From contig CBEUCJ010000001.1 in assembly GCA_965541615.1 (NCBI GenBank), positions 67,754-131,753 of the forward strand: DNA of 64,000 nucleotides, given 5' to 3'. The translations under genes were made by a program, and so were the position numbers. Source of the DNA: an uncultured bacterium (lineage in GTDB: Bacteria > Omnitrophota > Gorgyraeia > Duberdicusellales > CBEUCJ01). Numbering within the stretch: the stretch's first letter is position 1; every line of letters starts with the position of its first letter. Under the pieces are notes generated by a model. The model made no database searches. It had not been told where the DNA came from and saw only the letters and a program-made list of their open reading frames with translations. This document shows, one piece after another, positions 8,237 through 50,919 of this stretch.

Positions 8237-8425
8237 GAGAGATTTAAAGTTCTCTTTGAAAAATATCCCTGCCCTGTTGGTTGGGAAAAAGGCGCCTGCG
8301 CCAACACCATTTTTGAGGGAGCCTGCGTTCTCCTTGACTGTGGTCAAGGAGACAGGGCACCCACCTGTATGAGGATAGGGCTTGCAGTGGCAGCTTTTCC
8401 CAACGGCAGGGTGGGGATATTTTTA
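8237..8425 (+). ncRNA. candidate structured small RNA (6S/SsrS-like) or structured 5' leader of rarA
   Basis: About 150 nt at roughly 60% GC in an otherwise ~28% GC genome. A long closing helix pairs cctgccctgttgg (8268-8280) with ccaacggcaggg (8401-8412); only cctgcc/ggcagg and gttgg/ccaac are complementary, and neither strand's full span rcs to the other. Internal hairpins include ctccttgac-tgtg-gtcaaggag. The element ends in a T-run (atatttttattttt) and is preceded by a strong promoter. A 5-formyl-THF cyclo-ligase gene (the classic ssrS neighbour) lies about 1.2 kb downstream. Confidence 0.4.
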
Positions 8426-12928: not shown

Positions 12929-14796
12929 TTTTAGAAAAAATAAATTCTCCTCAAGATATAAAAAAACTTGGGATTAAAGATTTAAAGATTTTATGCAAAG
13001 AGATAAGAGATTACATAATAGAAGTAGTCTCAGAAACAGGAGGACATTTAGCCTCAAACTTAGGAGTAGTAGAATTAAGTGTTGCTCTTCATTATGTACT
13101 CAATACTCCTCATGATAAAATCATCTTTGATACAGGTCACCAATGTTATACTCATAAGATCCTTACTGGTAGATTCAGAGATTTTAAAAATTTAAGAAGA
13201 TTAGAAGGGATAAGTGGGTTCCCAGCTCCTTCTGAATCTGAATACGATGTATTCTATACAGGTCATGCTTCAAATGCAGTTTCACTAGGTCTGGGTTTGG
13301 TCTGTGCAAGAGATTTAGAAAATAAAGATTTTAAAGTCGTGTGTGTGGTGGGAGATGGAGCTCTATCAGGTGGTCAGACTTTTGAAGGATTAAACAATGC
13401 AGGTGAATTAAAGAAAGATTTATTAATAATCTTAAATTCCAATGAAATGTCAATATCTAAATGTGTAGGAGCAATATCTGTTTACTTAAACAGAATAATT
13501 ACTTCTCCTATTTACAATAGATTAAAATCTGAGATCTCTAAATTCATAGAATCTTTTCCTAAATTTGGCAAAAGAATGACAAATTTAATTAAGAAATTTG
13601 AAGAAGGATTAAAGAATATTTTGGTTCCAGGAATCATCTTTGAAGAATTAGGATTCAGATACTTTGGACCTATAGACGGACATAATTTAAAAATATTGAT
13701 CTCCACTTTAAAGAATGTATTAAAAATAAAAGGTCCAAAAGTCTTACATGTAGTTACCAAAAAAGGCAAAGGTTATGTATTCAGCGAACAAAATCCTGAA
13801 AAATTTCACTCAAGTCCACCTTTTATAATCCAGACAGGTGATCCTAAAAAACCTAAAACTGAAAGCTTTACAGATGTTTTTAGCAAAAAAATAGTAGAAT
13901 TAGCCAAAAAAGATAAAAAAATAGTAGCTATTACTGCTGCTATGAAAAAGGGGACAGGTTTAGATAAATTTGAAGCTGAATTCAAAGACAGATTTTTTGA
14001 TGTAGGGATCTGTGAAGAACATGCTGTAAGTTTTTCTGCAGGTTTAGCAAAGTTGGGATTTAAACCTTTTGTCTGTATTTATTCTACATTCTTACAGAGA
14101 GCTTATGATCAGATAATGCAGGATGTATGTCTGCAAAATTTAAAAGTAGTCTTTATTTTAGACAGGGCAGGTTTAGTAGGAGAAGACGGTCCCACTCACC
14201 ATGGAAATTTTGATATAGCTTATTTGAGAACTATACCCAGATTAATAATTACAGCTCCAAAAGATAAAGAAGAATTAGAAGATTTTTTAGAATTTTCATT
14301 AAATGTTAATGGTCCTATTAGCATAAGGTTTCCTAAAGATGAGAGCTTTTCTTTAAACAAAAGGACTCCCATTAAATTAGGAAAGGCTGAAATCTTAAAA
14401 GAGGGAAAAGACATAGCTTTATTATGCGTAGGTGTAATGTGTAAGTATGTATTTGAAATTTTAGAAGAATTAAAATCAAAAGGTATTTCGCCTTTAGTAG
14501 TAAATATGAGATTTATAAATCCTTTAGATGAAGATTTATTATTAAAAATAGCAAAAGAATTTAAATTGATAATTACTTTAGAAGAAGGAATCTTAGATGG
14601 AGGATTTGGTTCAGCAGTGTTAGAATTTTATGAAAAAAAAGATCTATTAGAAAAGATTAATATTAAAAGAATAGGATTAAAAAAAGATTTTATAACTTTT
14701 GGCAAAAGAGATGAGCTCTTAGAACTAAATGGATTGAAAGCCAAACCTCTCTTAAACCAGATCCTCAAATTTTTAAAAGAAACTATCTATGTATGA
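12925..14796 (+). CDS. dxs: 1-deoxy-D-xylulose-5-phosphate synthase
   Basis: 623 aa. GGHLASNLGVVELSVALHYV, TGHQCYTHKILTGR, a GDGALSGG TPP motif and a transketolase-like C-terminus. Confidence 0.9.
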   Translation: MILEKINSPQDIKKLGIKDLKILCKEIRDYIIEVVSETGGHLASNLGVVELSVALHYVLNTPHDKIIFDTGHQCYTHKILTGRFRDFKNLRRLEGISGFPAPSESEYDVFYTGHASNAVSLGLGLVCARDLENKDFKVVCVVGDGALSGGQTFEGLNNAGELKKDLLIILNSNEMSISKCVGAISVYLNRIITSPIYNRLKSEISKFIESFPKFGKRMTNLIKKFEEGLKNILVPGIIFEELGFRYFGPIDGHNLKILISTLKNVLKIKGPKVLHVVTKKGKGYVFSEQNPEKFHSSPPFIIQTGDPKKPKTESFTDVFSKKIVELAKKDKKIVAITAAMKKGTGLDKFEAEFKDRFFDVGICEEHAVSFSAGLAKLGFKPFVCIYSTFLQRAYDQIMQDVCLQNLKVVFILDRAGLVGEDGPTHHGNFDIAYLRTIPRLIITAPKDKEELEDFLEFSLNVNGPISIRFPKDESFSLNKRTPIKLGKAEILKEGKDIALLCVGVMCKYVFEILEELKSKGISPLVVNMRFINPLDEDLLLKIAKEFKLIITLEEGILDGGFGSAVLEFYEKKDLLEKINIKRIGLKKDFITFGKRDELLELNGLKAKPLLNQILKFLKETIYV

Positions 14797-18771: not shown

Positions 18772-19184
18772 GTTTTCCTCTAACTGAAGTATAAATATTG
18801 ATGATTCATCAACCAGCCTTTTGTTATTTGCTCCTTTCACAAAAAAGTATAGCTTCTTTCAATGACGTAGATTTTAAATATACTTTAGATAATTAGGAAT
18901 AAGTATGTCCATAAAGGTAAATGTAGTCTTTTATGTTTCAAAAAGGGGATGAATAAATATAGAAATAGAAAAAGAATACAATTTACTTATAAATTTGAGA
19001 AGTTTATTAATTCTATAGATGAGAGAGATTTAATGGATTTAAATAGACATTTGGATTGTTTATAGATTACTTAACTTTCTTGAAATAAATAATAAATAGA
19101 TATTGGCTTAACAAAGTAAAAGCATATTTTAGAAATATTTATGGTTAAATAAAATTTATGTTATAATTCTAAATGGAGGCTAAT

Positions 19185-19571
19185 ATGCAAGTAAAACCTA
19201 TAGTAAAAGCTTTTCTTATTGCAGATAAAGTTATGCGAGAGGAAGGGACTAAAAAGTGGAGTGTGATAGGTATATTTGACCGGATTTTTTCTAAAAATTT
19301 CCCTTGTATCCACCCAAGTTTAGCCTTATATATTAGATTAAGTAATGCAGAAGGTGAGTATAACGTTAAAATTGAGTTTTGTGAAATAGATGGGAAAGTT
19401 TTATCTCTATTCGAAGGAAAACTTAAGGTAGGTTCCAGATTAGCCACTCCAGAAATTGGGATTCAGACTTATAACCTTCCTTTACCAAAACCAGGGAGAT
19501 ATTTATTTAAGTTATATCTTAATGATGAATTTATTCAAGATTTTCCTATAGATGTTGTTCAAATAAAGTGA
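19185..19571 (+). CDS. hypothetical protein (128 aa); first gene of a tRNA-Gln-adjacent cassette
   Basis: GGAGG RBS 5 nt upstream of the ATG at 19185 (the ORF-track start at 19173 lies inside the RBS). A candidate -10 (tataat) sits at about 19163. No family recognised by eye. Predicted mostly beta. Confidence 0.5.
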   Translation: MQVKPIVKAFLIADKVMREEGTKKWSVIGIFDRIFSKNFPCIHPSLALYIRLSNAEGEYNVKIEFCEIDGKVLSLFEGKLKVGSRLATPEIGIQTYNLPLPKPGRYLFKLYLNDEFIQDFPIDVVQIK

Positions 19572-19587
19572 AAGGAGGTAATACATT

Positions 19588-19935
19588 ATGAGTCCAAAAT
19601 TGGAAATTAAAACAGAATTTATTCAGTCAGAAAAAAGTGGTGTTTCTTTAATTGAAGATATTTGGCAGACGCCAGCTACATATTTAATTAACAGATTAGG
19701 AAGAACTCCTCAAGTCAGATTAATAGGAGATAGATATTACCCAGAATATTTGCAAACTATTGTAGTTTTAGAAGACGATCCAGAAGGACTATTAGATAAA
19801 ATTTTTTCTATTGAAGTAGAGATGAGAAAAAAATTTAAGAATATAAACTTTGATCTTCGTGTTTGTGTAATTACTTCTGAAGAAGAAATAGAAAAGATGA
19901 AACAGGGACTTCTTATCCGATATGAACGAGTATGA
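19588..19935 (+). CDS. hypothetical protein (115 aa)
   Basis: Strong AGGAGG RBS 7 nt upstream. No recognisable motif. Confidence 0.5.
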   Translation: MSPKLEIKTEFIQSEKSGVSLIEDIWQTPATYLINRLGRTPQVRLIGDRYYPEYLQTIVVLEDDPEGLLDKIFSIEVEMRKKFKNINFDLRVCVITSEEEIEKMKQGLLIRYERV

Positions 19936-20398
19936 CTTCAGTAGAGGAGGAGTTGAGAAGTATTTTAGATTAATTGAACATGATTTAAAGCTATTAGATT
20001 TGCTTACAGAAAAATATCCATCTCATCTTGAAAAAGAAGATTTTTCTGACTGGATAGTAACTACTTTATTTTATATAGCATGTATTTATTTAAAAGCTTT
20101 ATTCAGATTGTATGGCGAAGATATTCAAAGTCATTATGCCTTGAAACAACAATTGTATGCAAGAAAAGAATTATTTCAAATCATAAAACCTTACAGACAT
20201 TTGGAAGAAGCAAGCAGAGATGCTCGTTATGAAGGGAGGGTCTTTTCTTCTGATTATATTATAAATAGACTTTATCCTAAATTTAAAATAGTGCGTGATT
20301 GTGTTGTTGAGCTGTTCAACAAAAATAGAATTTTTAATATTCCTCAAGTTGATCCCTTACCATTTTTAAAAAGATTAGAGAAACGAAGTATTTCTTAA
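19922..20398 (+). CDS. hypothetical alpha-helical protein (158 aa)
   Basis: Overlaps the previous gene by 14 nt (translational coupling). Arg-rich segment RHLEEASRDARYEG. No confident family assignment. Confidence 0.5.
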   Translation: MNEYDFSRGGVEKYFRLIEHDLKLLDLLTEKYPSHLEKEDFSDWIVTTLFYIACIYLKALFRLYGEDIQSHYALKQQLYARKELFQIIKPYRHLEEASRDARYEGRVFSSDYIINRLYPKFKIVRDCVVELFNKNRIFNIPQVDPLPFLKRLEKRSIS

Positions 20399-23142: not shown

Positions 23143-24168
23143 ATGGAAAAGTTCTTAAAAGTGGGCAAGATAAAAGTCTATCTTGTATGGTTCGATTCTA
23201 TGAAAGCTAAGTCTTCTGCTGTTTTTATCCAAACACCAGATGTAAAGATCCTCATAGATCCAGGAGCAGCTGTAATGCAGAACTCATATCCTTTGTCTAA
23301 TAAAGAAAAAGAATTTTTCAAAAAAGAAGCTTTAAAAAGAATAGAGTCTTTTTCTAAAAAATCTGATATTATAATCATTACTCATTACCATTATGACCAC
23401 CATACTCTTCCTACAAAAAAGTCAAACTTTTATGAACAAAAAACTTTATTTATAAAAGATCCTAATAAATGGATAAATAGATCTCAATTTTTTAGAGCAA
23501 GAAAATTCCTAAAGAGATTAGCAAATTTAAACAAAGTAAAGTTTAAAAACATATTAGAATCTCCTAAAAAATTAGAGTTTTATGACCCAGTTGAAGATTT
23601 GAAATTTAAAGAGGTAGATAAAAAACAACTCAAAAAAGGTAAAAAATGGCTAAAAGATTTATTTAAACTTTGGAATAAAGAAATGAGTGTTTGTGAGTGG
23701 TCTAAAAACAAAACTTCTGTTTACTTTGCAGATGGAAAAAAAGTAACTTTTAAAAACACACAGATATCATTTTCAGAACCTTTATTCCATGGAATAGAAT
23801 ATGATAGATTAGGCTGGGTAATAATGGTAAATGTTGAATATAAAGATAAAAAAGTCCTCTACACTTCAGATTTACAAGGTATTCCTATTAAAGATTATGC
23901 TCAAAAGATAATTGAGATTAACCCTGATTTATTAATAGCTGATGGACCTGCAACATATCTCTTAGGCTATTTATTAAATCAAAAAAATTTAGAAAGAGCT
24001 ATTGAAAATACTTCTTATATAATTAAAAATATAAAAGCTAAAACGATCATTTATGACCACCATCTATTAAGAGATTTAAACTACAAACAAAAAGTAGAAA
24101 AAATTTATAAGACAGCTTCTAATCTTGGAAAAAAGGTCTTAACTGCTCTTGAATTCTTAGAAGGGTAA
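23143..24168 (+). CDS. MBL-fold metallo-hydrolase (UPF0282-like)
   Basis: 341 aa. IIITHYHYDHH is the beta-lactamase-fold HxHxDH zinc motif. Confidence 0.6.
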   Translation: MEKFLKVGKIKVYLVWFDSMKAKSSAVFIQTPDVKILIDPGAAVMQNSYPLSNKEKEFFKKEALKRIESFSKKSDIIIITHYHYDHHTLPTKKSNFYEQKTLFIKDPNKWINRSQFFRARKFLKRLANLNKVKFKNILESPKKLEFYDPVEDLKFKEVDKKQLKKGKKWLKDLFKLWNKEMSVCEWSKNKTSVYFADGKKVTFKNTQISFSEPLFHGIEYDRLGWVIMVNVEYKDKKVLYTSDLQGIPIKDYAQKIIEINPDLLIADGPATYLLGYLLNQKNLERAIENTSYIIKNIKAKTIIYDHHLLRDLNYKQKVEKIYKTASNLGKKVLTALEFLEG

Positions 24169-27135
24169 ACCAAAACTTAAATGAAATTTTTCTCTCTTTC
24201 CTTCTTTAACTGGACCTAACTTAATCCCTAAGTCTAATCTTAAAAATCCCCATTTTGTTCTATATCTCAATCCTAAACCAGTCCCACATTTTAATCTTGA
24301 AATCTTAAATTCCTTAGGTTTATTTGTCAAAAAACCTGTATCAAAAAATAAAGCTCCATACCATTTTTTGTAAATAGGGAACCTAAACTCTGAATTTAAA
24401 ATCCCATAGAATCTTCCACCTAAAGGAAGGTTATCTTTATCTAAGAGATCTGCTCTCCTCCCTTTATAACCTCTTATACTACTTGAACCACCTATAAAAA
24501 ATTTCTCAAAGAATGGTATTGTCTGAAAATCTCCTATTTTATCTTCATATCCTAATTTATTTCTTAAAACAAACACTCTTTCTTTCTTTAAATCCCAATA
24601 AAATCTATTTTCAAATTCTATTTTATAAAAATTTGCATCTGAACCTAAAGCTGAATCTGATAAGTTAAAATTGATTACAGAGTAACTTCCTTTTGTAGGA
24701 TAAATCTTATTATCTAAGGTATCTCTTATAATCTTTAAATTCAAAAAATTGATTTGAGATCTTGGCTGATATTTTTTTAAACTTAAAGGTGCTTTAAAAG
24801 AAACTTTATTTATTGAGTACTCATTAAAACTAAATCCTATTTTTAACTTTGTAAATTTTAAAATTTGAGCACCTAAATAAAAATCCAATGAAAAATTAGT
24901 TTTTAAACTATATCTTTTATCTTTTTCCCATCTCCCTTTGAATACAATTCCACAAAATAGAGGTGAGTTAAATATTTCTTTTTTCTCAAAACCTAATCTT
25001 ATTTTTTTCTCATACTCAGAATACTTACCTCCTGCTATGAGTTTAATATTTTTAAAATGATAACTTAAATTCAGTTTGTTATAAGCTGTCATTCTTAATC
25101 TTAAAGTTTTCTTGGTATCTTTTAAAAAATTCAGAATCTTTTCTTCTATAAAACCTAAAAAAACTATAGAACTTAAATGTCCTGATAAAAGCCAATAGGA
25201 TTTTTTACAATTTAAAGCTCTTTGAAATTCTAATACACATTTTCTTGGGATGTACCTATCAAAGATAGCATTTATCATCAATATTTTTTTATCCTTTAAC
25301 TTATAAGCAAAATTTAAAGGATCTAAAACTTTTAATTCATTTAAGATCTCTGGTGCAAGTTCTTTTTTTACTTTATATTTTTTAGAAATAGTGCTCTTTA
25401 AAAGTAATTCTTTTAAATCAGCTCCTCCTAAAATAAATATCCCTGAATCTATATCCTCTCTTAACTCTAAAACTCTTTCACTAACTATACTCCCTAAACT
25501 TACTCCACCTAAAGTGATTTTAGCTGTGAATTCCTTTTCTTTTAGCCAGTCCAATATATTTTGAGCTTCAAACAAGAGTTCTTTAATTAAATCTAAATAT
25601 ATTAGAAAAATAATATCTTTTTTTCTCCTTATTTTTTTGTATTTGCGATAATCTTTTTGAAATCCTGTCTGAAAAGTTAAAAACCCAATGTCATTTTGAG
25701 CTAAAAATTTTCCTAACTCTCCTTCTATATTCTTACTCACTCCTCTTGAATGTGGAATAAAAACTAAAAATGGAATCTTTTCTTTGGCTTCTAAAGGTAA
25801 GTAACAATATATGTATATACTTTTATCAGGCAATCTATTTTTTATTTTTGGGATATAAAAATATATTAATTTTTTATAAAAAGGAGTTTGTAATTCCTTT
25901 ATCAATTTAGGAGAAATCTTTTCTGATCTTTTTAAACTTATTTTTTTATAAACTTTCTCTTTATAATCTTTAAATACACTTTTTAAAGAAAATCTTACGT
26001 ATTCTTTCTCTTTAACAGAATAAATAAAAAATTCCTTTTTTGAAGGAATAAAGACTATACTTTGCAAGAGATGATTTGAATAAAAAGGCTTAGCCCTCAA
26101 AATTTTAAAGATATCTTTTAAAGAAAACTTATCTTTACTTTTTATAAACTCTTTAAATTTCTTAAGTCTTTTATAAGAAGAAGTATTCTCTAATTTAGTA
26201 TTAGGATAAACTTTCTTCATCGTCTTAAATAATTCTTTTGAAAGATAATGGTTTACACTTACTAAATAATTATCTTTTGGAAAAAGTATTTGATATCTTT
26301 TGCCTGTAAATTCAATTAGTGCAGCTTTCTTATTTTTTTCACAAATAGTTATTGTGAAGCCTGCTATTCTTTTTGAAGAGATTACTTTTCCAATAGCTTC
26401 TTCTAAACTCTCAGAATTTTGAATTAGTTCTCTTAATAGAAACATAATCGGTATTCCTGTGCGATTTAATTCACTAGTTCCCACCCCTGTCTCAGAAACA
26501 GAGATTCCTTTTGCATTCATTGCACTTAAAACTCCACACATTCCAGGCCATCCAATAGAAACAAAAGGTACACCTTTTTTTGGCATAAAAAAGAAGATTA
26601 CTTGGTTTTCTACTAAACCCTGTGGGGGCACAAAACCTAAATCTCTACCATGAAAAAGTAAAGCTTCTTTTGTAATCTTAGGCATCAGTACAATATTCGT
26701 GCAAGTCTTTTTCTTCCTCAAAAAACTCAAAGTATCCAAAAAAGTATGCATCATTAATATTTTTGAATAACTTAACCCTGAACCTTTTGCTATCCCTATT
26801 ATTTCTTTCCTTAATTCTTTAGGGATGTATCTTTGGTACAAAAAAGCTTTAAATTTGAAATAATTCCAAAGGATAAACCTTTTAAGTTTAGATTTTATCT
26901 GTTTTTTTAAAAATGTATTTAAAAAATAATCTCTATAAAGCTGATTTATTTCTTTTCTTAATAAGACTCCTTGCTGATAACCCATCTCAAAGCTATCCCC
27001 TTTAAGATACACTATTTTAAAACCTGCTCTTTCTTCTAAATGGGCTTTTTTTAAAATCTTATAGAAATCTTGATGACAATTTAAATTTTTAAAAAATGAA
27101 AGGAAAATAATAAAGAAAAATATCTTTGCCTTCAT
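24157..27135 (-). CDS. 992-aa predicted outer-membrane protein fusing a C45 Ntn-hydrolase domain, an alpha/beta-hydrolase domain and an Omp85/Bac_surface_Ag beta-barrel
   Basis: N-terminal signal peptide (MKAKIFFFIIFLSFF). About aa 40-400: GDSFEMGYQQG, the autoproteolytic TCTNIV site and FHGRDLGF match the C45 acyl-CoA:6-APA acyltransferase/peptidase family. About aa 430-690: FLVFIPHSRG, the GVSLG nucleophile elbow and LSGHLSS match an alpha/beta hydrolase. About aa 700-992: FIGGSSSIRGYKGR and ALFFDTGFL are the Bac_surface_Ag (PF01103) motifs, and the protein ends in ...FGLPF. Confidence 0.7.
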   Translation of the reverse strand: MKAKIFFFIIFLSFFKNLNCHQDFYKILKKAHLEERAGFKIVYLKGDSFEMGYQQGVLLRKEINQLYRDYFLNTFLKKQIKSKLKRFILWNYFKFKAFLYQRYIPKELRKEIIGIAKGSGLSYSKILMMHTFLDTLSFLRKKKTCTNIVLMPKITKEALLFHGRDLGFVPPQGLVENQVIFFFMPKKGVPFVSIGWPGMCGVLSAMNAKGISVSETGVGTSELNRTGIPIMFLLRELIQNSESLEEAIGKVISSKRIAGFTITICEKNKKAALIEFTGKRYQILFPKDNYLVSVNHYLSKELFKTMKKVYPNTKLENTSSYKRLKKFKEFIKSKDKFSLKDIFKILRAKPFYSNHLLQSIVFIPSKKEFFIYSVKEKEYVRFSLKSVFKDYKEKVYKKISLKRSEKISPKLIKELQTPFYKKLIYFYIPKIKNRLPDKSIYIYCYLPLEAKEKIPFLVFIPHSRGVSKNIEGELGKFLAQNDIGFLTFQTGFQKDYRKYKKIRRKKDIIFLIYLDLIKELLFEAQNILDWLKEKEFTAKITLGGVSLGSIVSERVLELREDIDSGIFILGGADLKELLLKSTISKKYKVKKELAPEILNELKVLDPLNFAYKLKDKKILMINAIFDRYIPRKCVLEFQRALNCKKSYWLLSGHLSSIVFLGFIEEKILNFLKDTKKTLRLRMTAYNKLNLSYHFKNIKLIAGGKYSEYEKKIRLGFEKKEIFNSPLFCGIVFKGRWEKDKRYSLKTNFSLDFYLGAQILKFTKLKIGFSFNEYSINKVSFKAPLSLKKYQPRSQINFLNLKIIRDTLDNKIYPTKGSYSVINFNLSDSALGSDANFYKIEFENRFYWDLKKERVFVLRNKLGYEDKIGDFQTIPFFEKFFIGGSSSIRGYKGRRADLLDKDNLPLGGRFYGILNSEFRFPIYKKWYGALFFDTGFLTNKPKEFKISRLKCGTGLGLRYRTKWGFLRLDLGIKLGPVKEGKREKFHLSFGLPF

Positions 27136-27220
27136 TTCATCATTATTTTACTCCATCTACAATTTTTTTGTAAATCTGGTCTTGCTCATTTGACACAGTT
27201 TTTTTAAAGATGTAAAATTT

Positions 27221-39603: not shown

Positions 39604-41019
39604 ATGAAGTTCATAAATCGAGAAAAAGAACTGCAATTTTTAGAAGAGAGATATTTATCTAAAAAACCCGAATTTATCATCATCTATGGCAAAAGAAGAG
39701 TAGGCAAAACTGAACTTATCAAACAGTTTATTAAGAAAAAACCTGCTATATATTTTCTTGCAGACAAAAGAAACCTCTTAGAACAATTAAAAGAATTAGG
39801 AAAAGTTATTGGAGGATATTTTAAAGATACAATTTTAGAAAGGAGAGGGTTTAATAATTTTTTAGAAGTATTTGAGTATCTGAAAGAAAAAGTAAAAAAC
39901 AGACTCATCTTTGTCATAGACGAATACCCTTATTTAGTTGAAGTAGAAAAATCTATTACTTCTATATTTCAAAAAGGGTGGGATGAATATTTAAAGAATA
40001 CCAAAATTTTTCTTATTCTTTGCGGCTCAAGTGTTTCTATGATGGAGGAAGAAACTCTTATTTATAAATCTCCTCTTTATGGAAGAAGAACAGGACAGAT
40101 TTTATTAAAACCACTTTCTTTTTATGAAAGTTGGAAGTTCTTTCCCAAGATAAATTTTGATAAGTTTTTAGAGATCTTTACTATTACAGGAGGAGTTCCT
40201 TGCTATCTTCTTCAGATTAACTCTGCTCTTTCTCTTGAAGAGAATATTAAGTTAAAGATTTTCCCTAAAACAGAATTTTTACATAACGAAGTTGAATTTA
40301 TTTTAAAAGAAGAATTAAGAGAACCTAAAAATTATCTTGCAATTTTGAAAGCTATTTCTTGGGGAAGAAAAAGATTTAGCGAAATAATAAACGAAACTGG
40401 CTTAGAAAAAAACATTCTTACAAAATATTTAGATGTTTTAAAAAATCTTCAACTGGTTGAAAAGGAAGTACCTGTTACAGAGAAGAATCCTGTAAAATCA
40501 AGAAAAGGACTTTATGAAATTTGTGACAATTTTTTTAGATTTTGGTTTCAATATATCTATCCTTATAAAAGTGATTTGGAGATAGAAAGATTCGATGAAG
40601 TTTTAAGGAAACTAAAAGAAAATTTTAAAATTTTAGAGGCTATAACTTATGAAAAAGTATCTCGTGAAATTCTCTGGAGATTGAGAGATAAAATATTTCC
40701 TTTTGAAAGAATAGGAAAGTGGTGGGAAAAAGGAGAGGAAATAGATATAGTAGGACTTAATCAAAAAACTAAAGAAATTATTTTTGGAGAAGCAAAGTGG
40801 TCAAATAAGCCTATAGATGTAGATGTGTATAAAAAACTAAGAATGAAAAGCAAATCTGTAAATTGGATGAGAAAAAACAGAAAAGAATATTATGTTCTTT
40901 TTAGTAAAAGTGGTTTTACTAAAAACATGATAAAATTAGCAAAAGAAGATGGAATATTTTTAGTCCATAAAGATAAATTGTTGTATAATCCTAAGAAAAG
41001 AAATGTTGGCTCTTTTTAA
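39604..41019 (+). CDS. Arch_ATPase/DUF234 family AAA ATPase
   Basis: 471 aa. MKFINREKELQFLEERYLSKKPEFIIIYGKRRVGKTELIKQF (Walker A), VIDEYPYL (Walker B), a C-terminal DUF234-like region with EIDIVGLN...GEAKWS. Confidence 0.7.
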   Translation: MKFINREKELQFLEERYLSKKPEFIIIYGKRRVGKTELIKQFIKKKPAIYFLADKRNLLEQLKELGKVIGGYFKDTILERRGFNNFLEVFEYLKEKVKNRLIFVIDEYPYLVEVEKSITSIFQKGWDEYLKNTKIFLILCGSSVSMMEEETLIYKSPLYGRRTGQILLKPLSFYESWKFFPKINFDKFLEIFTITGGVPCYLLQINSALSLEENIKLKIFPKTEFLHNEVEFILKEELREPKNYLAILKAISWGRKRFSEIINETGLEKNILTKYLDVLKNLQLVEKEVPVTEKNPVKSRKGLYEICDNFFRFWFQYIYPYKSDLEIERFDEVLRKLKENFKILEAITYEKVSREILWRLRDKIFPFERIGKWWEKGEEIDIVGLNQKTKEIIFGEAKWSNKPIDVDVYKKLRMKSKSVNWMRKNRKEYYVLFSKSGFTKNMIKLAKEDGIFLVHKDKLLYNPKKRNVGSF

Positions 41020-43337: not shown

Positions 43338-44666
43338 ATGGATGTTTTAAAAATTTGGCAAGAAGCTAAAGAAAAAATAAAATCTAGGATTGGAGATACT
43401 TCTTTTGAAACATGGATATCTTCCACACAGGTAAAGGAAGACAAAAACTGTTTAATTTTAGAAGTACCTGATAAATTCTTTAAAGATTGGTTAGAGACCC
43501 ATTATTTAGAAATAATAAAAGAATGCCTTTTGTTATGTGGATATAAAGGAGAAATAAAATTAAAAATAAATCCTTATCTTTTGAAACCCTCTACAAAATC
43601 TAAATTTTCTCAGCTAGAATTTCAATTTCAAGAGACTCAAGATTTTTCACATCTAAATCCTCGTTATACATTTGAAAACTTTGTAGTTGGAAATTCTAAC
43701 AAATTTGCACATGCAGCCTGTTTAGCTGTAGCTAACTCTCCTGGAAAAACTTACAATCCTTTGTTTATATATGGAGGCGTAGGTTTAGGTAAAACCCATC
43801 TTTTGCAAGCTATAGCTCATAGAGTTAAAGGAAAATTTTCTGAAGCTAAAGTTTTATATATTTCAGCAGAAGATTTTACAAATCAATTGATAAAGTCTAT
43901 CCAAACTCATTCTACAGAAAGATTTAGGAATAAATTTAGAAATCTTAACGTATTATTAATCGATGATATCCACTTTTTAGGAGGTAAAGAATCTACCCAA
44001 GAAGAGTTTTTTCACACCTTCAATGTACTTTATGATAACCATAAACAAATAGTCATTTCTTCAGACCGTCCACCAAAAGAACTACCTAGGATGGAAGAGA
44101 GATTAGTATCTAGATTTAATTGGGGATTAGTTGTGGATATTCAACCTCCAGATTTTGAGACAAGATTAGCTATATTAAAAAAGAAAATAGAAAATGAACC
44201 TATAAAAGTCCCTACTGAAGTCTTAGAATTTATTGCAGAAAAGGTTACTTCTAACATAAGAGAATTAGAAGGTGCTTTGGTAAGAGTTTTTGCTTATTCT
44301 TTAATAGAAAATAAACCTATAACTTTAGAGTTAGCTAAAGAAGTGTTAAAAGACATGTTAAAAGAAGCTAAATTAAATATTAGTGTAGATAAAGTTAAAA
44401 GAAAAGTAGCTGAATATTTCAATATTTCTTTTGAAGATTTGAAATCTAAAAAAAGAAGTAAAACTATTATTTTTCCAAGACAAATAGCTATATATCTGGT
44501 TAGAAAATTAACTGATTTTTCTTTACCAGAAATTGCTAGGTTTTTTGGTAAAAAAGATCACACAACTATTTTACATTCTATCAACAAGATAGAAGAGTTA
44601 GTAAAAAAGGATTTAAAGGTTAAAAATATAGTTTTAGAAATAGAAAATGAAATTAGAAGAAACTAA
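43338..44666 (+). CDS. dnaA: chromosomal replication initiator DnaA
   Basis: 442 aa. GGVGLGKTHLLQAIAH (Walker A), LLIDDIHFL (Walker B), C-terminal DNA-binding domain KTIIFPRQIAIYLVRKLTDFSLPEIARFFGKKDHTTILHS. Confidence 0.95.
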   Translation: MDVLKIWQEAKEKIKSRIGDTSFETWISSTQVKEDKNCLILEVPDKFFKDWLETHYLEIIKECLLLCGYKGEIKLKINPYLLKPSTKSKFSQLEFQFQETQDFSHLNPRYTFENFVVGNSNKFAHAACLAVANSPGKTYNPLFIYGGVGLGKTHLLQAIAHRVKGKFSEAKVLYISAEDFTNQLIKSIQTHSTERFRNKFRNLNVLLIDDIHFLGGKESTQEEFFHTFNVLYDNHKQIVISSDRPPKELPRMEERLVSRFNWGLVVDIQPPDFETRLAILKKKIENEPIKVPTEVLEFIAEKVTSNIRELEGALVRVFAYSLIENKPITLELAKEVLKDMLKEAKLNISVDKVKRKVAEYFNISFEDLKSKKRSKTIIFPRQIAIYLVRKLTDFSLPEIARFFGKKDHTTILHSINKIEELVKKDLKVKNIVLEIENEIRRN

Positions 44667-44745
44667 TCCACATTTTTCACAATATTTTCTATCCCCTACT
44701 ATCTTAATTACAGAGTATAAGTGTAGAAGAAAATAGGAGGTAAAA

Positions 44746-45843
44746 ATGAGTGGAAATGTGGAAATTAAAAAGAATGAGTTTTTAAAAGCATTGCAAAAGT
44801 CATCTAAAATAATAACTGCAAAACCACCTTTACCTGTATTGAGTAATGTATTATTAGATTTTAAAGAAGATACAATGAGGATTTTAACTACTGATTTAGA
44901 AAAATCTATTTCTGTTAGGATTAATTCTTCTGTTAAAAAAGAAGGAAGAGTTTGTTTTCCTGCTAAAAGATTACTCAGCTTTGTTAGAGAAATGCCAGGT
45001 GAAGAGATTTTGTTAGAGATAGATGGAGATTTTCAAGGAATTTTAAGAAGTCAAAATTGTGAATTTAAGATTTTAGGTCAAAATCCAGATGAGTTTCCTG
45101 AGTTTCCTGAAATAAAAGAAGCTTTAACATTTGAGTTAGATACTCACAGTTTAGAAAAAGCAATAAAATTAGTCTCTTATGCAGTTTCTAGTGAAGAGAG
45201 TAAATATGTATTAAATGGTATTTTATTTGAATTTGAGGATTCAGAGTTAAAATTGATAGCTACTGATGGGAGGAGATTAGCTTTATCTAAGATTCCTTTA
45301 AAAACAGAAATAACTGAAAAAATTTCTTTTATAGCTCCTTCTGAGACAGTAGATGTTTTAGAAGATTTTATAAGTGAGAAGATAAATATAAAAATATGTT
45401 TTTCTGAAAATAAAATTTTATTTGATTTAGATAATATTCAAATAATCTCTAGGAGTTTAGAAGGAGAATTTCCAGATTATAAACAAGTAATACCTGATCC
45501 TTGGCCTTCAAGACTTAAGATAAACAGGGATATTTTTTTGGCTTCTTTAAAAAGAGCTAATTTGTTAACTACTTTAGATTATCAAGCTGTACAGTTAGAT
45601 ATAAAAGAAGACAGATTAATAGTTAAGAAACAGACACCAGAAATAGGTGAGATGCAGGAATCTTTAGAAGCTAAATTTTCAGGTAAACCTCTAAGTATTA
45701 GTTTTAATCCAGTTTATTTAATAGAGCCATTAAAGAATTTAAAAGACTCTGAACTTGAAATTGAAATTAGAGATTCTGAAAAACCAGCAGTTATTAGAAA
45801 AGAAGATTTTCTTTATATAGTGTTGCCTATTAGGATGGTATGA
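44746..45843 (+). CDS. dnaN: DNA polymerase III beta sliding clamp
   Basis: 365 aa, three-domain clamp pattern. LIATDGRRLA and ISFNPVYLIEPLK motifs. Position after dnaA. Confidence 0.9.
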   Translation: MSGNVEIKKNEFLKALQKSSKIITAKPPLPVLSNVLLDFKEDTMRILTTDLEKSISVRINSSVKKEGRVCFPAKRLLSFVREMPGEEILLEIDGDFQGILRSQNCEFKILGQNPDEFPEFPEIKEALTFELDTHSLEKAIKLVSYAVSSEESKYVLNGILFEFEDSELKLIATDGRRLALSKIPLKTEITEKISFIAPSETVDVLEDFISEKINIKICFSENKILFDLDNIQIISRSLEGEFPDYKQVIPDPWPSRLKINRDIFLASLKRANLLTTLDYQAVQLDIKEDRLIVKKQTPEIGEMQESLEAKFSGKPLSISFNPVYLIEPLKNLKDSELEIEIRDSEKPAVIRKEDFLYIVLPIRMV

Positions 45844-46112
45844 TAGAAAAAATAGGTAATAGTGTAAAAGAGATAGTAAATTCAACAAAGAAAAAGTATA
45901 TTAAATTTCAGAAAGAAATAAAAGAAAAGATTTTAAAAGAACTCTCTTCTAAAGAGATAAATTTTATAAAATCTATAGAAGTGAGTAATAAAATAGTGTA
46001 TATTAAAGTGTCAAATTTTTTTGTAGGTTATTTTTTAAAATTCAAAAAAGGAAAGCTTCTTAAGGTGCTTAAAGATTCAGAGATAGAAGATATAAAATTT
46101 AAGATTGCTTAA
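45840..46112 (+). CDS. DUF721 (DciA/YaaA-like) small protein
   Basis: 90 aa. It occupies the slot between dnaN and gyrB where DUF721/S4-like genes usually sit. recF is absent here. IVYIKVSNFFVGYFLKFKKGKLLKVL fits the DUF721 hydrophobic core. Confidence 0.45.
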   Translation: MIEKIGNSVKEIVNSTKKKYIKFQKEIKEKILKELSSKEINFIKSIEVSNKIVYIKVSNFFVGYFLKFKKGKLLKVLKDSEIEDIKFKIA

Positions 46113-46122
46113 GAATTTTTAA

Positions 46123-48492
<2,370 letters not shown>

Positions 48493-48495
48493 GCT

Positions 48496-50919
48496 ATGAA
48501 AGAGAAGGTAATTCCAAAATATTTAGAAGAAGAAGTAAAAGATTCCTATCTTTCTTATGCTATGAGCGTAATTATGGGAAGAGCTCTACCTGATGTTAGA
48601 GATGGTTTAAAACCTGTTCAAAGAAGAATACTTTACACTATGCATGAGTTGAATTTAAGGCACAATCAGCCTTTTAAAAAATCTGCAAGAATTGTAGGAG
48701 AATGTTTGGGGAAATTTCATCCACATGGAGATATGGCAGTATATGAAGCTCTAGTAAGGATGGCTCAGGATTTTACTTTAAGATACCCTTTAATTCAAGG
48801 ACAAGGTAACTTTGGTTCTATAGATGGAGACCCACCTGCTGCCATGCGTTATACAGAAGCCAGATTATCAAAGATTTCAAATTACATGTTGACTGATATT
48901 GAAAAGGATACTGTAGATTTTGTTCCTAATTTTGACAATACTTTATCTGAACCTGTAGTCCTTCCTGCAGTTTTACCTAATCTTTTAGTCAATGGAACTT
49001 CAGGAATAGCTGTGGGAATGGCTACGAGTATACCTCCTCATAACCTTTCAGAAGTTATAGATGGAATAATTTATTATTTAGAAAATCCTGATTGTAGAAT
49101 AAAAGATTTAATGAGATTCATAAAAGGTCCTGATTTTCCTACAGGTGGAATTATTTATGGAAAAGAAGATCTTTTAAAAGCTTATCAGACAGGAAAAGGA
49201 AGAATAGTTTTAAGAGGGAAAGTTGAATTTGAAGAACATAAATCAAAAAAAAGGATTATCATTACAGAAATTCCATATCAAGTAAATAAAGCTCAGCTTT
49301 TAGAGAACATAGCAAACTTAGTAAACAGAAAAGTAATTGAAGGGATACAAGATTTAAGAGATGAATCAGATAAAGAAGGTATGAGGATAGTAATAGAGTT
49401 AAAAAGAGAAGCTAATTCTGAAATAGTTTTAAACAGGCTTTATAAATTCACACAATTGGAAGTTACTTTTAGCATAATAAATTTAGCTATTGTAGAAGGA
49501 AGACCTAAGATCTTAAATCTTAAAGAGTTAATTTCTCTTTATGTTGAGCATAGAAAAAATGTTATTATTAGGAGAACAAAATTTGAATTAGAAAAAGCCA
49601 AAAAAAGAGCTCATATTTTAGAAGGATTAAAAAAGGCTTTAAAATTTATAGATTTGGTAATTTCTATCATTAAGAAATCTAAAACTCCTCAAGAAGCAAA
49701 AGGAAATTTAATGAAAAAATTAGAATTGAGCAAAATCCAAGCTCAAAGTATCTTAGAGATGCAGTTGCAAAAATTAACTAATTTAGAACAGAAAAAGATA
49801 GATGAAGAATATTTAGAGGTTATAAAAAAGATAGAGTATCTTGAAAGAGTATTGAGTTCAGAGGAGATGGTTAAAGAAATAATAAAAGAAGAGTTATTAA
49901 CTTTGAAAAAAGAGTTTAAGGATAAAAGAAGGACTGAAATTATAGAAGAAGTAGAAAAAATAGAAATAGAAGATTTGATTCCTCAAGAAGATGTGGTAAT
50001 AACTTTAACTCATACAGGTTACATTAAAAGACAGCCTTTAAGTTCTTACAGAGAACAAAAAAAACAAGCAAAAGGTTTGTTAGCTACTCAAATCTCTAAA
50101 GAAGATTTTTTAGAACATTTGTTTTTAGCATCTAGCAAAGATTATATTTTAATTTTTACTAACAAAGGTAAAGTTTTTTGGCTAAAAGTTTATGAGATTC
50201 CTGAAGGTTCAAGAGGAGCTAAAGGGAGGGCTTTGGTGAATTTTATAAACTTAAGTTCAAATGAGAAGGTTAGAGCTATTATTTCTTTAAAAGAAGTAGA
50301 AAAAGATAGTTCATTGATTTTAGCTACAAAAAGGGGATTTATAAAAAAATTGAGGATAAAAGATTTGGGTTCACCTAAAAAGAAAGGTTTAATCGTTATT
50401 TCTTTAGATAAAAATGATGATTTGGTAGGAGCAGGTTTAGTAAAAGAAGGTTATGATATAATTCTGGCTACTAAAGAGGGTTTATGCATAAGATTTTCTG
50501 AAACAGATGTGAGAAGAATGAAGAGAGCTGCAAGAGGAGTTAAGGCAATTGATTTAAAGAAATCAGATGAAGTTATAGGTATGGAAGTTGTGGATAAAAG
50601 ATTAGAAAAGGAGTTAGGGCTTTTAACATTTAGTGAGAAAGGATTTGCTAAAAGGACTCCTCTTTCAGAATACAGAGTTCAAAAAAGAGCAGGTAAAGGT
50701 ATTATAAATTTTAATGTTAATGAGAAGACAGGAAAAGTCGTTGGCATTCTCATTGTGAAAAAAGAAGATCAAATAGTGTTGATAACTCAGAAAGGTATTT
50801 TGAAAAGGTTAAACGTTTTGGCTATAAAACCTACAAAAAGAGCTACTCAGGGAACTAAAGTTATAAAGTTAGAAGCTCAAGATTTGGTAAGTTCTGTAGC
50901 TCGTATCGTTTCTGAATAA
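48496..50919 (+). CDS. gyrA: DNA gyrase subunit A
   Basis: 807 aa. AMRYTEARL contains the active-site Tyr. QRD-like HPHGD is present. C-terminal beta-pinwheel repeats. Confidence 0.95.

Follow-up and report, generated by a model that had tools for sequence, protein, structure and literature searches.

What does an outer-membrane β-barrel do when two hydrolase folds precede it in a single chain? The question is raised by an ORF on the minus strand of the window (the whole 64,000-nucleotide stretch of DNA analysed here). In an earlier note on this DNA, the two enzyme domains had been read as passengers of a type Vd-like barrel, perhaps surface-displayed or released. With moderate confidence we favour another answer, in which the protein would be a two-hydrolase enzyme anchored on the outer membrane's inner face rather than a secretion device.

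The ORF spans 24157..27135 and comprises an ATG start, 992 codons and a stop (24157-24159); it is apparently monocistronic, and all protein features described below lie on the same strand. These limits agree with those first described, and every motif quoted at the time is found in the translation at its assigned domain, including FIGGSSSIRGYKGR and the C-terminal FGLPF. The tripartite order is real: a signal peptide is followed by a C45-type domain, an α/β-hydrolase and an Omp85 barrel, and profile searches for the three domains return matches to PF03417, PF09752 and PF01103, respectively, with scores well beyond those expected by chance. The same domain order is kept in independent assemblies (JGI, ENA, Logan and NCBI MAG) down to ~32% identity, and one homologue from an independent assembly (P0001) is likewise 992 aa long and 98% identical. 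The signal-peptide-like N terminus (residues 1 to ~22; 27070..27135) consists of MKAK and then an 11-residue hydrophobic core, at which hydropathy reaches its maximum for the whole chain; homologues have equivalent N termini. A lipobox was considered here and ruled out, the sequence reading N-L-N-C, and the cysteine is not conserved in the homologues.

The first enzyme domain (residues ~25–383; 25987..27063) belongs to the C45 family. It matches the NCBIfam model C45_proenzyme (NF040521) over residues 45–366 (E 1.7e-50; 172 bits against a curated cut-off of 85) as well as Pfam AAT (PF03417; E 6e-17), and it has the αββα fold of Cys-Ntn-hydrolases. GDSFEMGYQQG occupies residues 46–56 and TCTN residues 144–147. 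Within the latter, Cys145 (26701..26703) aligns with the nucleophile of the family C[ST] motif and with Cys103 of isopenicillin-N acyltransferase (IAT). It is predicted to serve both as N-terminal nucleophile and as the point of autocleavage (T144|C145), so that the chain would presumably divide into an α chain ending at Thr144 and a β chain beginning at Cys145. The catalytic residues of IAT and their roles have been described (PMC13044924). Two of them, the oxyanion Asn and an Arg, are retained as Asn295 (IAT Asn246) and Arg323 (IAT Arg268), and both are invariant in the clade of the window protein, throughout which Cys145 is also unchanged.

The remaining catalytic motif is non-canonical. 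HGRDLGF had been listed among the motifs of the domain and is indeed present at residues 162–168 (26632..26652), but it deviates from the consensus G-R-N-L-D-[FWY]: Asp165 takes the position of IAT Asn119, and Gly167 that of IAT Asp121. The Asp of R-N-L-D, equivalent to Asp121 in IAT, Asp162 in acid ceramidase and Asp145 in NAAA (PMC13044924), is Gly in P0001–P0006 and Ser in P0013 and P0015. With this residue lost, the C45 domain may be able neither to self-cleave nor to catalyse. Because the canonical Asp is absent, its sequence points either to a non-canonical acyl-amidase or acyltransferase, or else to a substrate-binding partner. Nevertheless, C45 is the best-conserved domain within the clade of the window protein (63, 52, 54 and 41% identity), and hence it would still be functional there.

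Elsewhere in the family the C45 domain is not always intact. The segment bearing the Cys nucleophile is deleted in three Omnitrophota-type relatives (L004, L005 and P0014), and the whole domain is missing from P0016 and P0018, each of which has its own signal peptide; the P0018 gene lies at the genomic position that in L004 and L010 is taken by the tripartite gene. The α/β-hydrolase domain (residues ~396–672; 25120..25950) behaves differently. PHSRG lies at residues 461–465, GVSLG at 544–548 and SGHLS at 651–655, and a helical cap is placed at 574–613. Its fold, the GxSxG elbow and a Ser-Asp-His triad in canonical order place the domain in the α/β-hydrolase superfamily. The nucleophile, Ser546 in the GVSLG elbow (25498..25500), and the predicted triad acid Asp626 in NAIFD (25258..25260) and base His653 in SGHLS (25177..25179) are each invariant in all 26 aligned relatives, whatever their architecture, and also in A4. 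Because the triad is invariant in these relatives while the C45 segment or domain has been lost in some, the alignments identify the serine hydrolase as the catalytic element that stays constant throughout the family. The idea that both hydrolases function equally is thereby weakened, as it is by the absence of the canonical Asp from the C45 domain in this clade.

The C-terminal barrel (residues ~679–992; 24160..25101) is of the Omp85 type, to which BamA and TamA belong, by both profile and fold. The Pfam Omp85 profile (PF01103) aligns to residues 701–992 with E 1e-41 and a score of 144 bits (cut-off, 24), and the chain ends in a C-terminal β-signal (...SFGLPF). Closed Omp85 barrels carry lid-lock motifs, defined as (V/I/L)RG(Y/F) in loop 6 and FxDxG in strand β13 (PMC11358297). 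Both are present, as IRGY at residues 887–890 (within FIGGSSSIRGYKGR, residues 880–893; 24457-24498) and FFDTG at residues 930–934 (within ALFFDTGF, residues 928–935; 24331-24354), and R888, G889, Y890, F930, D932 and G934 are invariant in eight tripartite proteins. The structural model predicts 15 clear strands plus a three-residue strand at 679–681 in a low-confidence stretch. Counted together, they place 11 strands ahead of loop 6 and 5 beyond it, the pattern of BamA and TamA.

Between the last helix of the hydrolase (residues 654–672) and the clear barrel strands lies a linker (residues 673–688; 25072..25119) of 6–16 residues, too short to leave room for a POTRA domain of ~75 aa. Consistent with this, the Pfam search returned no POTRA family at E≤1 and the model contains none, so that the domain layout differs from that of type Vd, to which it had been likened. 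Model confidence falls below a pLDDT of 50 at residues 676–678 and 682–686, and the short strand modelled at 679–681 may be β1. Outside the fusions, the closest barrels belong to 350-aa proteins made up of nothing but a signal peptide and the barrel itself (P0039, P0048, P0052 and P0063), which align over the whole barrel with 29–33% identity.

We propose that the protein is exported by Sec and that its POTRA-less barrel would act as an anchor in the outer membrane, which it may also perturb locally. The C45 Ntn-fold and the capped Ser-Asp-His hydrolase would be held at the periplasmic face, serving as an anchored enzyme as in PlpD, with no passenger export. The enzyme domains probably face the periplasm because there is no POTRA domain, the linker has at most 16 residues, the lid-lock motifs are retained and the enzyme of PlpD is periplasmic. 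N-terminal domains of Omp85 proteins lie in the periplasm, which for the PlpD enzyme domain has been shown experimentally (PMC11116518), and a closed dome has been used as an argument against transport (PMC11358297). For these same reasons the terms passengers, type Vd-like and surface-displayed or released no longer appear apt. Among related architectures, P0158 combines C45, TPR, POTRA and barrel, placing C45 beside modules whose location in known Omp85 proteins is the periplasm, and sibling C45–α/β-hydrolase proteins with signal peptides are exported in soluble form. A linker of 16 residues, if extended, could in principle span the barrel, and this counts against a periplasmic location.

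The enzyme would most likely act on acyl ester linkages, and possibly also on acyl amide linkages, in envelope lipids or lipopeptides of the outer membrane's inner leaflet. We lean towards lipids because of several hints, each weak and indirect, from the C45-fold relatives, ABHD18 matches, the cap, structures close to that of the hydrolase domain and adjacent genes. Among solved structures, the nearest relatives of the C45 fold (IAT, NAAA and acid ceramidase) all act on acyl amides. Pfam ABHD18 (PF09752), whose namesake is a cardiolipin-deacylating lipase (PMC12173737), is matched by 6 of 11 family members and is the best Pfam family for several (E down to 1e-10). The window protein scores 25–30 bits against a cut-off of 21, in a partial alignment of residues 598–659 to profile positions 274–336 of 351; other members match positions 39–206. 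The hydrolase domain has esterases among its structural neighbours, and the nearest structure solved, 4z8z, is that of an uncharacterised protein from Ruminiclostridium. Two loci have genes for PEMT/ICMT-type membrane methyltransferases as immediate neighbours, and a third has one for a diacylglycerol kinase. No lipid gene lies beside the window ORF, and no neighbourhood is conserved across its clade. Also counting against the lipid assignment are the span of the ABHD18 match, 62 residues, the presence of feruloyl esterases, acetyl-xylan esterases and acylaminoacyl peptidases among the structural neighbours, and the rank of Peptidase_S9 as the commonest Pfam match of family members.

This last observation bears on a different, though unlikely, reading, in which an S9/S15-like peptidase and a C45 amidase or peptidase would trim or degrade damaged or misassembled envelope proteins at the outer membrane as a form of quality control, the barrel perhaps recognizing unfolded OMP substrates through their β-signals. 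Peptidase_S9 is matched by 9 of 11 members and Peptidase_S15 by 5 of 11, and a role in periplasmic proteolytic quality control was suggested by Heinz & Lithgow for the 'Metallo' Omp85 subfamily. In Omnitrophota-type loci, moreover, M23 and M48 peptidases with the protein-repair methyltransferase PCMT lie upstream and YfiH-like and SurE genes downstream; PCMT is also near the gene in L002. However, these peptidase-rich surroundings are limited to one lineage, and the S9/S15 matches are near threshold and cover only the half of the domain with the nucleophile elbow. The hydrolase also has neither the β-propeller nor the gating domain typical of S9/S15, its closest structures are esterases, and Ntn hydrolases of the C45 clan cleave non-peptide amides (PMC13044924).

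Export of both enzymes by the barrel in the manner of a type V autotransporter, with display or with release after C45 autocleavage as extracellular acyl- or peptidyl-hydrolases, strikes us as distinctly improbable. In its overall order, enzyme before barrel, the chain follows PlpD and FplA, which have in the past been assigned to type Vd (PMC4104836), and the low-confidence linker at residues 673–688 is not seen docked in the model. Autocleavage at Cys145 would free only about the first 144 residues and could be regulatory. Yet the chain has neither a POTRA domain nor a long linker or helix to fill the pore, and it retains the lid-lock motifs of closed barrels, while the nearest barrels, those of the noNterm subfamily, are passenger-free. 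For PlpD, experiments contradict the type Vd secretion model, and FplA could not be detected at the cell surface (PMC11116518); by an argument from the same work, two globular, fast-folding domains of ~650 residues are unlike known autotransporter passengers.

We consider it very unlikely that the barrel retains an Omp85 assembly or translocation activity towards other proteins or lipoproteins, with the attached enzymes processing clients in transit, for instance by deacylation or trimming. It does have all the Omp85 hallmarks, its first strand is ill-defined in the model, as would fit a lateral gate, and noNterm Omp85 proteins have been proposed to be auxiliary foldases or translocases (PMC11358297). 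Nonetheless, it lacks POTRA domains, with which BamA, TamA and TpsB deal with their clients; at the compared loci no gene for a partner or client is consistently found beside it; and PlpD, the best-studied enzyme–Omp85 fusion, displays no such activity. Quorum quenching or detoxification, in which an Ntn acyl-amidase and a lactonase- or esterase-like hydrolase would jointly attack N-acyl-homoserine-lactone (AHL)-type or comparable compounds, with both amide and ester bonds, on their entry into the periplasm, is scarcely credible: dienelactone-hydrolase matches occur in 6 of 11 members and an MBL-fold hydrolase gene adjoins the ORF, but nothing points specifically to AHL, MacQ belongs to a different Ntn family and the C45 site is non-canonical or dead across much of the family.

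The MBL gene, for which a functional link had been mooted, is convergent with the ORF, overlapping its 3′ end by 12 nt, and was not found next to homologues at any compared locus. It is not operonic with the ORF. On the other side, an 85-bp divergent intergenic region (27136..27220) separates the ORF from a Na+/H+ exchanger gene and contains one promoter-like site per strand. That on the minus strand (TTTACA-18-TAAAAT; 27174..27145) is a consensus match alone, and such sites are no commoner in these 85 bp than in shuffled sequence.

Soluble C45–α/β-hydrolase proteins are common (31 of the best 160 representatives, for example P0023, P0031 and P0042), whereas the fusion to a barrel is very rare: out of 1.84 billion representatives, it occurs in three clusters at 50% identity. 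None of these clusters carries a name. The architecture falls outside the ten Omp85 subfamilies of Heinz & Lithgow, none of which includes a fusion to C45 or to an α/β-hydrolase (PMC4104836), and a full-text literature search for peptidase C45 together with Omp85 retrieved no paper.

Known systems compare with the protein as follows. The match to eukaryotic ABHD18 (PF09752) is partial and distant. Relative to IAT, a member of peptidase family C45 to which NAAA and acid ceramidase are clan relatives, Asp121 has become Gly167 and Asn119 has become Asp165, and the domain forms part of an exported chain together with two others. The soluble C45–α/β-hydrolase proteins share the module, its order, the signal peptide and the Ser-Asp-His triad, but lack the barrel, show the canonical C...RxLD motif and separate the two domains by a longer spacer. 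By sequence, the nearest POTRA-less barrels are those of the noNterm subfamily (Heinz & Lithgow 2014; Leptospira LIC12252/12254/12258), which by definition have ~20–45 periplasmic residues, whereas the window protein has ~650 enzyme residues before its barrel. The 'Metallo' (PF00149–Omp85) proteins, whose barrels Heinz & Lithgow noted to resemble those of noNterm, and WD40–Omp85 proteins likewise place a non-POTRA N-terminal domain on an Omp85 barrel, although the folds differ. PlpD and FplA are alike in joining, in a single chain, an N-terminal lipolytic-type hydrolase to an Omp85 barrel with lid-lock motifs (PMC11116518); their barrel has 16 strands, a number that the window protein would share. 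They differ in having one enzyme fold, a patatin domain with a Ser-Asp dyad, and the single POTRA of type Vd; the window protein has two, C45 and a Ser-Asp-His hydrolase, with no patatin match and no POTRA. Type Vd translocation is itself disputed for PlpD, and the likely logic, in which the outer membrane keeps an enzyme on its periplasmic side, would be common to both (PMC11116518). We regard the window protein as a variant among enzyme–Omp85 fusions.

The minus-strand ORF at 24157..27135 is intact, running for 992 codons from an ATG to the stop codon at 24157–24159, and every motif quoted in the earlier note lies in the protein where that note had placed it. Its C45 and Omp85 domain assignments were both confirmed by profile search at very high significance: NF040521 (NCBIfam C45_proenzyme) matches residues 45–366 (E 1.7e-50; 172 bits against a cut-off of 85) and PF01103 (Pfam Omp85) matches residues 701–992 (E 1e-41). 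The middle domain gave only a partial Pfam match, to ABHD18 (25 bits; cut-off 21). Among family members, this region matched Peptidase_S9 in 9 of 11 and ABHD18, DLH and BAAT_C in 6 of 11 each, and its profile aligned over nearly the full length of the solved alpha/beta-hydrolase 4z8z (E 5e-16), for which a literature search yielded no function. The window protein is a genuine member of three superfamilies: Omp85, C45 and alpha/beta-hydrolase. POTRA families in Pfam gave zero matches to it even at E≤1. Cys20 was considered as a lipoprotein cysteine and rejected: its N-L-N-C context does not make a lipobox, nor is the residue conserved.

An AlphaFold2 model built from seven close homologues alone was poor (pLDDT 54.8); the model built with a 90-sequence alignment mixing full-length, two-domain and single-domain relatives reached pLDDT 90.7 and pTM 0.83. 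Foldseek matched this model to isopenicillin-N acyltransferase (IAT), a family C45 enzyme, with a TM score of 0.79–0.81 and to the TamA barrel with 0.78. The last helix of the hydrolase domain spans residues 654–672, residues 676–686 are modelled with low confidence, and the barrel strands, the last of which ends at 989, begin at 689 or at a three-residue strand, 679–681. In the model, then, no more than 16 residues join the hydrolase module to the barrel, a junction too short to hold a POTRA domain. The barrel has 11 strands before loop 6 and 5 after, the split seen in BamA and TamA, the count of 11 being reached only if 679–681 is included.

Relatives of the whole protein are few. Among 5.8 billion 90%-identity clusters there were six, at 98% to 48% identity, all metagenomic and unnamed. 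For a census of architectures, 1.84 billion representatives at 50% identity were searched by profile without a filter, the results were combined with per-domain HMMs and the best 160 matches were sorted. C45 alone accounted for 75 of these, C45 plus alpha/beta-hydrolase without a barrel for 31 (for example P0023, P0031 and P0042), the barrel alone for another 31, the tripartite order of C45, alpha/beta-hydrolase and barrel for 7 (P0001–P0005, P0013 and P0014), and alpha/beta-hydrolase plus barrel without C45 for 2 (P0016 and P0018). At 50% identity the seven tripartite matches form three clusters, with P0004, P0013 and P0014 as their representatives. Signal peptides are present in the C45-plus-hydrolase proteins. 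P0016 and P0018 have signal peptides of their own and are therefore complete proteins, not fragments. When GTDB species genomes were scanned, further tripartite proteins (921 and 928 aa, 32–33% identity) came to light in metagenome-assembled genomes labelled Candidatus Omnitrophota and 'Planctomycetia'; these proteins keep the AAT, alpha/beta-hydrolase and Omp85 matches. Because the identical architecture occurs in assemblies of four independent sources, an artefact of assembly or fusion was dismissed.

Besides the fusions, the nearest barrels are P0039, P0048, P0052 and P0063, proteins of ~350 aa consisting of signal peptide and barrel only, with 29–33% identity to the window barrel over its whole length. 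They are of the noNterm type, which carries neither POTRA nor another N-terminal domain, and they rank nearer to the window barrel than do POTRA-bearing BamA- and TamA-like proteins. The picture is modular: a widespread, exported C45-plus-hydrolase module has been joined, rarely, to a noNterm-type barrel. P0158, a sibling protein of 981 aa, begins with a signal peptide and a C45 domain of canonical motif (C-T-S...H-A-R-N-L-D-F), followed by TPR repeats, one POTRA (PF07244, residues 605–677) and an Omp85-like barrel that is degenerate and ends in ...YQGF; the TPR and POTRA modules lie between C45 and barrel. In P0158 a C45 domain has thus been joined to an Omp85-type barrel a second time, and independently.

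The predicted triad of the hydrolase domain, Ser546 (in GVSLG), Asp626 and His653, shows no variation in 26 aligned relatives of every architecture and is likewise invariant in eight tripartite proteins. The C45 family consensus, C[ST]...G-R-N-L-D-[FWY], aligns in a profile-to-PDB comparison with IAT Cys103 and Q-N119-W-D121-F. IAT uses Cys103, Asn119, Asp121, Asn246 and Arg268 in catalysis, and in acid ceramidase the Asp stabilizes the alpha-amino group of the nucleophile (PMC13044924). In the window protein Cys103, Asn246 and Arg268 are kept as Cys145, Asn295 and Arg323, Asn119 is changed to Asp165 and Asp121 is lost, its place taken by Gly167. The Asp121 position is Gly throughout the window clade and Ser in P0013 and P0015. 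In P0014 and the proteins of L004 and L005 (L-numbers are homologous loci on other contigs) a deletion takes out the Cys-bearing strand plus the R-N-L-D strand, and no Cys is left in the deleted region of the C45 domain. P0016 and P0018 lack the domain entirely, and the P0018 gene occupies exactly the genomic slot in which L004 and L010 carry their tripartite genes. Within the window clade, C45 is nevertheless the best conserved of the three domains (63, 52, 54 and 41% identity, where the hydrolase domain has 55, 45, 45 and 30%) and is hence under selection for something; this may be non-canonical catalysis or substrate binding.

The signal-peptide-like N terminus would direct export through Sec, and the C-terminal ...SFGLPF beta-signal together with the Omp85 barrel implies insertion in the outer membrane by BAM. 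To our knowledge, the N-terminal domains are periplasmic in all Omp85 proteins of known structure, and PlpD, a patatin–Omp85 fusion, is the sole enzyme–Omp85 fusion to have been studied. The patatin domain of PlpD is exclusively periplasmic, the protein is dimeric and it affects phospholipid levels (PMC11116518). The window barrel keeps the IRGY and FxDxG motifs of the lid-lock that closes Omp85 barrels (PMC11358297). Taken with the periplasmic Omp85 N termini and PlpD, the short tie to the barrel, the lid-lock motifs and the layout of P0158 lead us to favour an outer-membrane-anchored hydrolase on the periplasmic side.

Such a hydrolase could act on envelope lipids or lipopeptides, at their acyl-ester or acyl-amide bonds. 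This suggestion is a weak one, drawn from the following: the nearest Ntn relatives are specific for acyl amides, the hydrolase fold is capped and esterase-like, ABHD18, a distant relative, is a cardiolipin lipase (PMC12173737), and lipid-enzyme genes adjoin homologues. At L001, radical-SAM genes lie upstream of the homologue and a gene for a prokaryotic diacylglycerol kinase (13069–13452) adjoins it downstream, and a PEMT/ICMT-type membrane methyltransferase gene adjoins the homologues of L002 (7677–8297) and L008 (4064–4810), otherwise unrelated loci. The main rival is a role in peptide or protein quality control. Loci of the Omnitrophota type (L004, 5182–15001; L005; L010; L011, 3277–12916) hold a fixed cluster of AMP-binding, Hydrolase_4, M23, M48, PCMT, the fusion gene, Cu-oxidase_4 (YfiH-like), Metallophos_2, DUF362 and SurE, reminiscent of the surE-pcm-nlpD stationary-phase cluster of E. 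coli, and in the fusion gene of this cluster the C45 domain is dead or missing. Context therefore offers no more than hints: genes for lipid enzymes at three loci and, in a single lineage, genes for envelope peptidases and protein repair. True surface export of the N-terminal domains, the display or release that the earlier note had envisaged, may occur instead, against which stand the same tie and lid-lock motifs that point to the periplasm. We consider unlikely a more far-reaching version of the periplasmic hydrolase, an unrecognized Omp85 enzyme-fusion class whose POTRA-less barrel presents outer-membrane lipids to a bifunctional deacylase, the serine esterase cleaving ester-linked and the non-canonical Cys-Ntn amidase amide-linked acyl chains. 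Its candidate substrates, chosen as envelope lipids with both ester and amide bonds, would be lipid A, ornithine or aminolipids, and triacylated lipoproteins. Were it true, Omp85 barrels would, with PlpD and P0158, have been repeatedly recruited as lipid-remodelling platforms, not protein translocases.

In the window the 992-aa gene stands alone. A convergent MBL-fold gene (23143..24168, plus strand) overlaps its 3′ end by 12 nt (24157–24168), with no terminator-like hairpin found between the two, and a divergent Na+/H+ exchanger gene faces its 5′ end across 85 bp. The only plus-strand hairpin, 24410–24432, lies within the 992-aa ORF. A functional link to the MBL hydrolase and other neighbours, raised earlier, is not supported: the MBL gene is convergent and the immediate neighbours do not recur at homologous loci. 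TrmO lies ~3 kb downstream in the window and downstream of the homologue in L007, which has a two-component system upstream. Sharing in the window clade is only partial (TrmO in the window and L007, PEMT/ICMT in L002 and L008); a conserved neighbourhood as a functional argument for this clade was rejected, as no neighbour is common to the window, L001, L002, L007 and L008.

The source organism has ~29% GC, and the window also carries PFOR and radical-SAM genes. Its dnaA (43338–44666), probable dnaN (44746–45843), gyrB (46129–48492) and gyrA (48496–50919) form a stretch, 43338–50919, that marks a replication-origin-type region. GC skew is positive on both flanks of this region and negative only at ~22–28 kb, where genes are minus-strand; it seems to follow the coding strand. 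A 6S RNA (Rfam RF00013, 69.5 bits) lies at 8263–8421 (plus strand), flanked by pheT and a gene for an MgsA-type AAA+ ATPase, and six tRNA genes are dispersed over the window. After tRNA-Gln come three small plus-strand ORFs (19173–20398), one matching DUF6941 and two matching no Pfam family. ATPase_2/DUF234 ('archaeal ATPase') genes occur at 39604–41019 and near the homologue in L007 (7218–8316), a locus that ends in a Transposase_20 gene.

Omp85 proteins have so far been viewed almost exclusively as machines for protein assembly and translocation. The finding in 2024 that PlpD is a periplasm-facing lipase (PMC11116518) opened the idea that the Omp85 scaffold was put to a further use, as an anchor for enzymes that serve outer-membrane lipid homeostasis. 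The window family adds a second, structurally unrelated enzyme module on an Omp85 barrel, with P0158 providing a third layout. What sets the window family apart is its lack of any POTRA and its natural variants in which C45 is non-canonical, dead or absent beside a constant serine triad, a combination that amounts to a natural experiment on what a barrel contributes to an attached enzyme. Moreover, the outer membrane is the first cellular context for a large, uncharacterized group of bacterial C45-plus-hydrolase proteins.

Heinz and Lithgow distinguish ten Omp85/TpsB subfamilies, BamA, TamA, BamA-like, Lipo, PlpD, Metallo, WD40, noNterm, FhaC and Hmw1B, none of which has a C45 or alpha/beta-hydrolase N terminus (PMC4104836), and our literature search found no paper that joins 'peptidase C45' with 'Omp85'. 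The window protein had been described as type Vd-like; it has neither the patatin nor the POTRA of that type, and the family bears on the reality of 'type Vd secretion' as a category. Nor does it belong to noNterm, given the large N-terminal module before its barrel. P0158, in contrast, is laid out as is PlpD. The window protein thus joins the enzyme–Omp85 fusions as a new variant.
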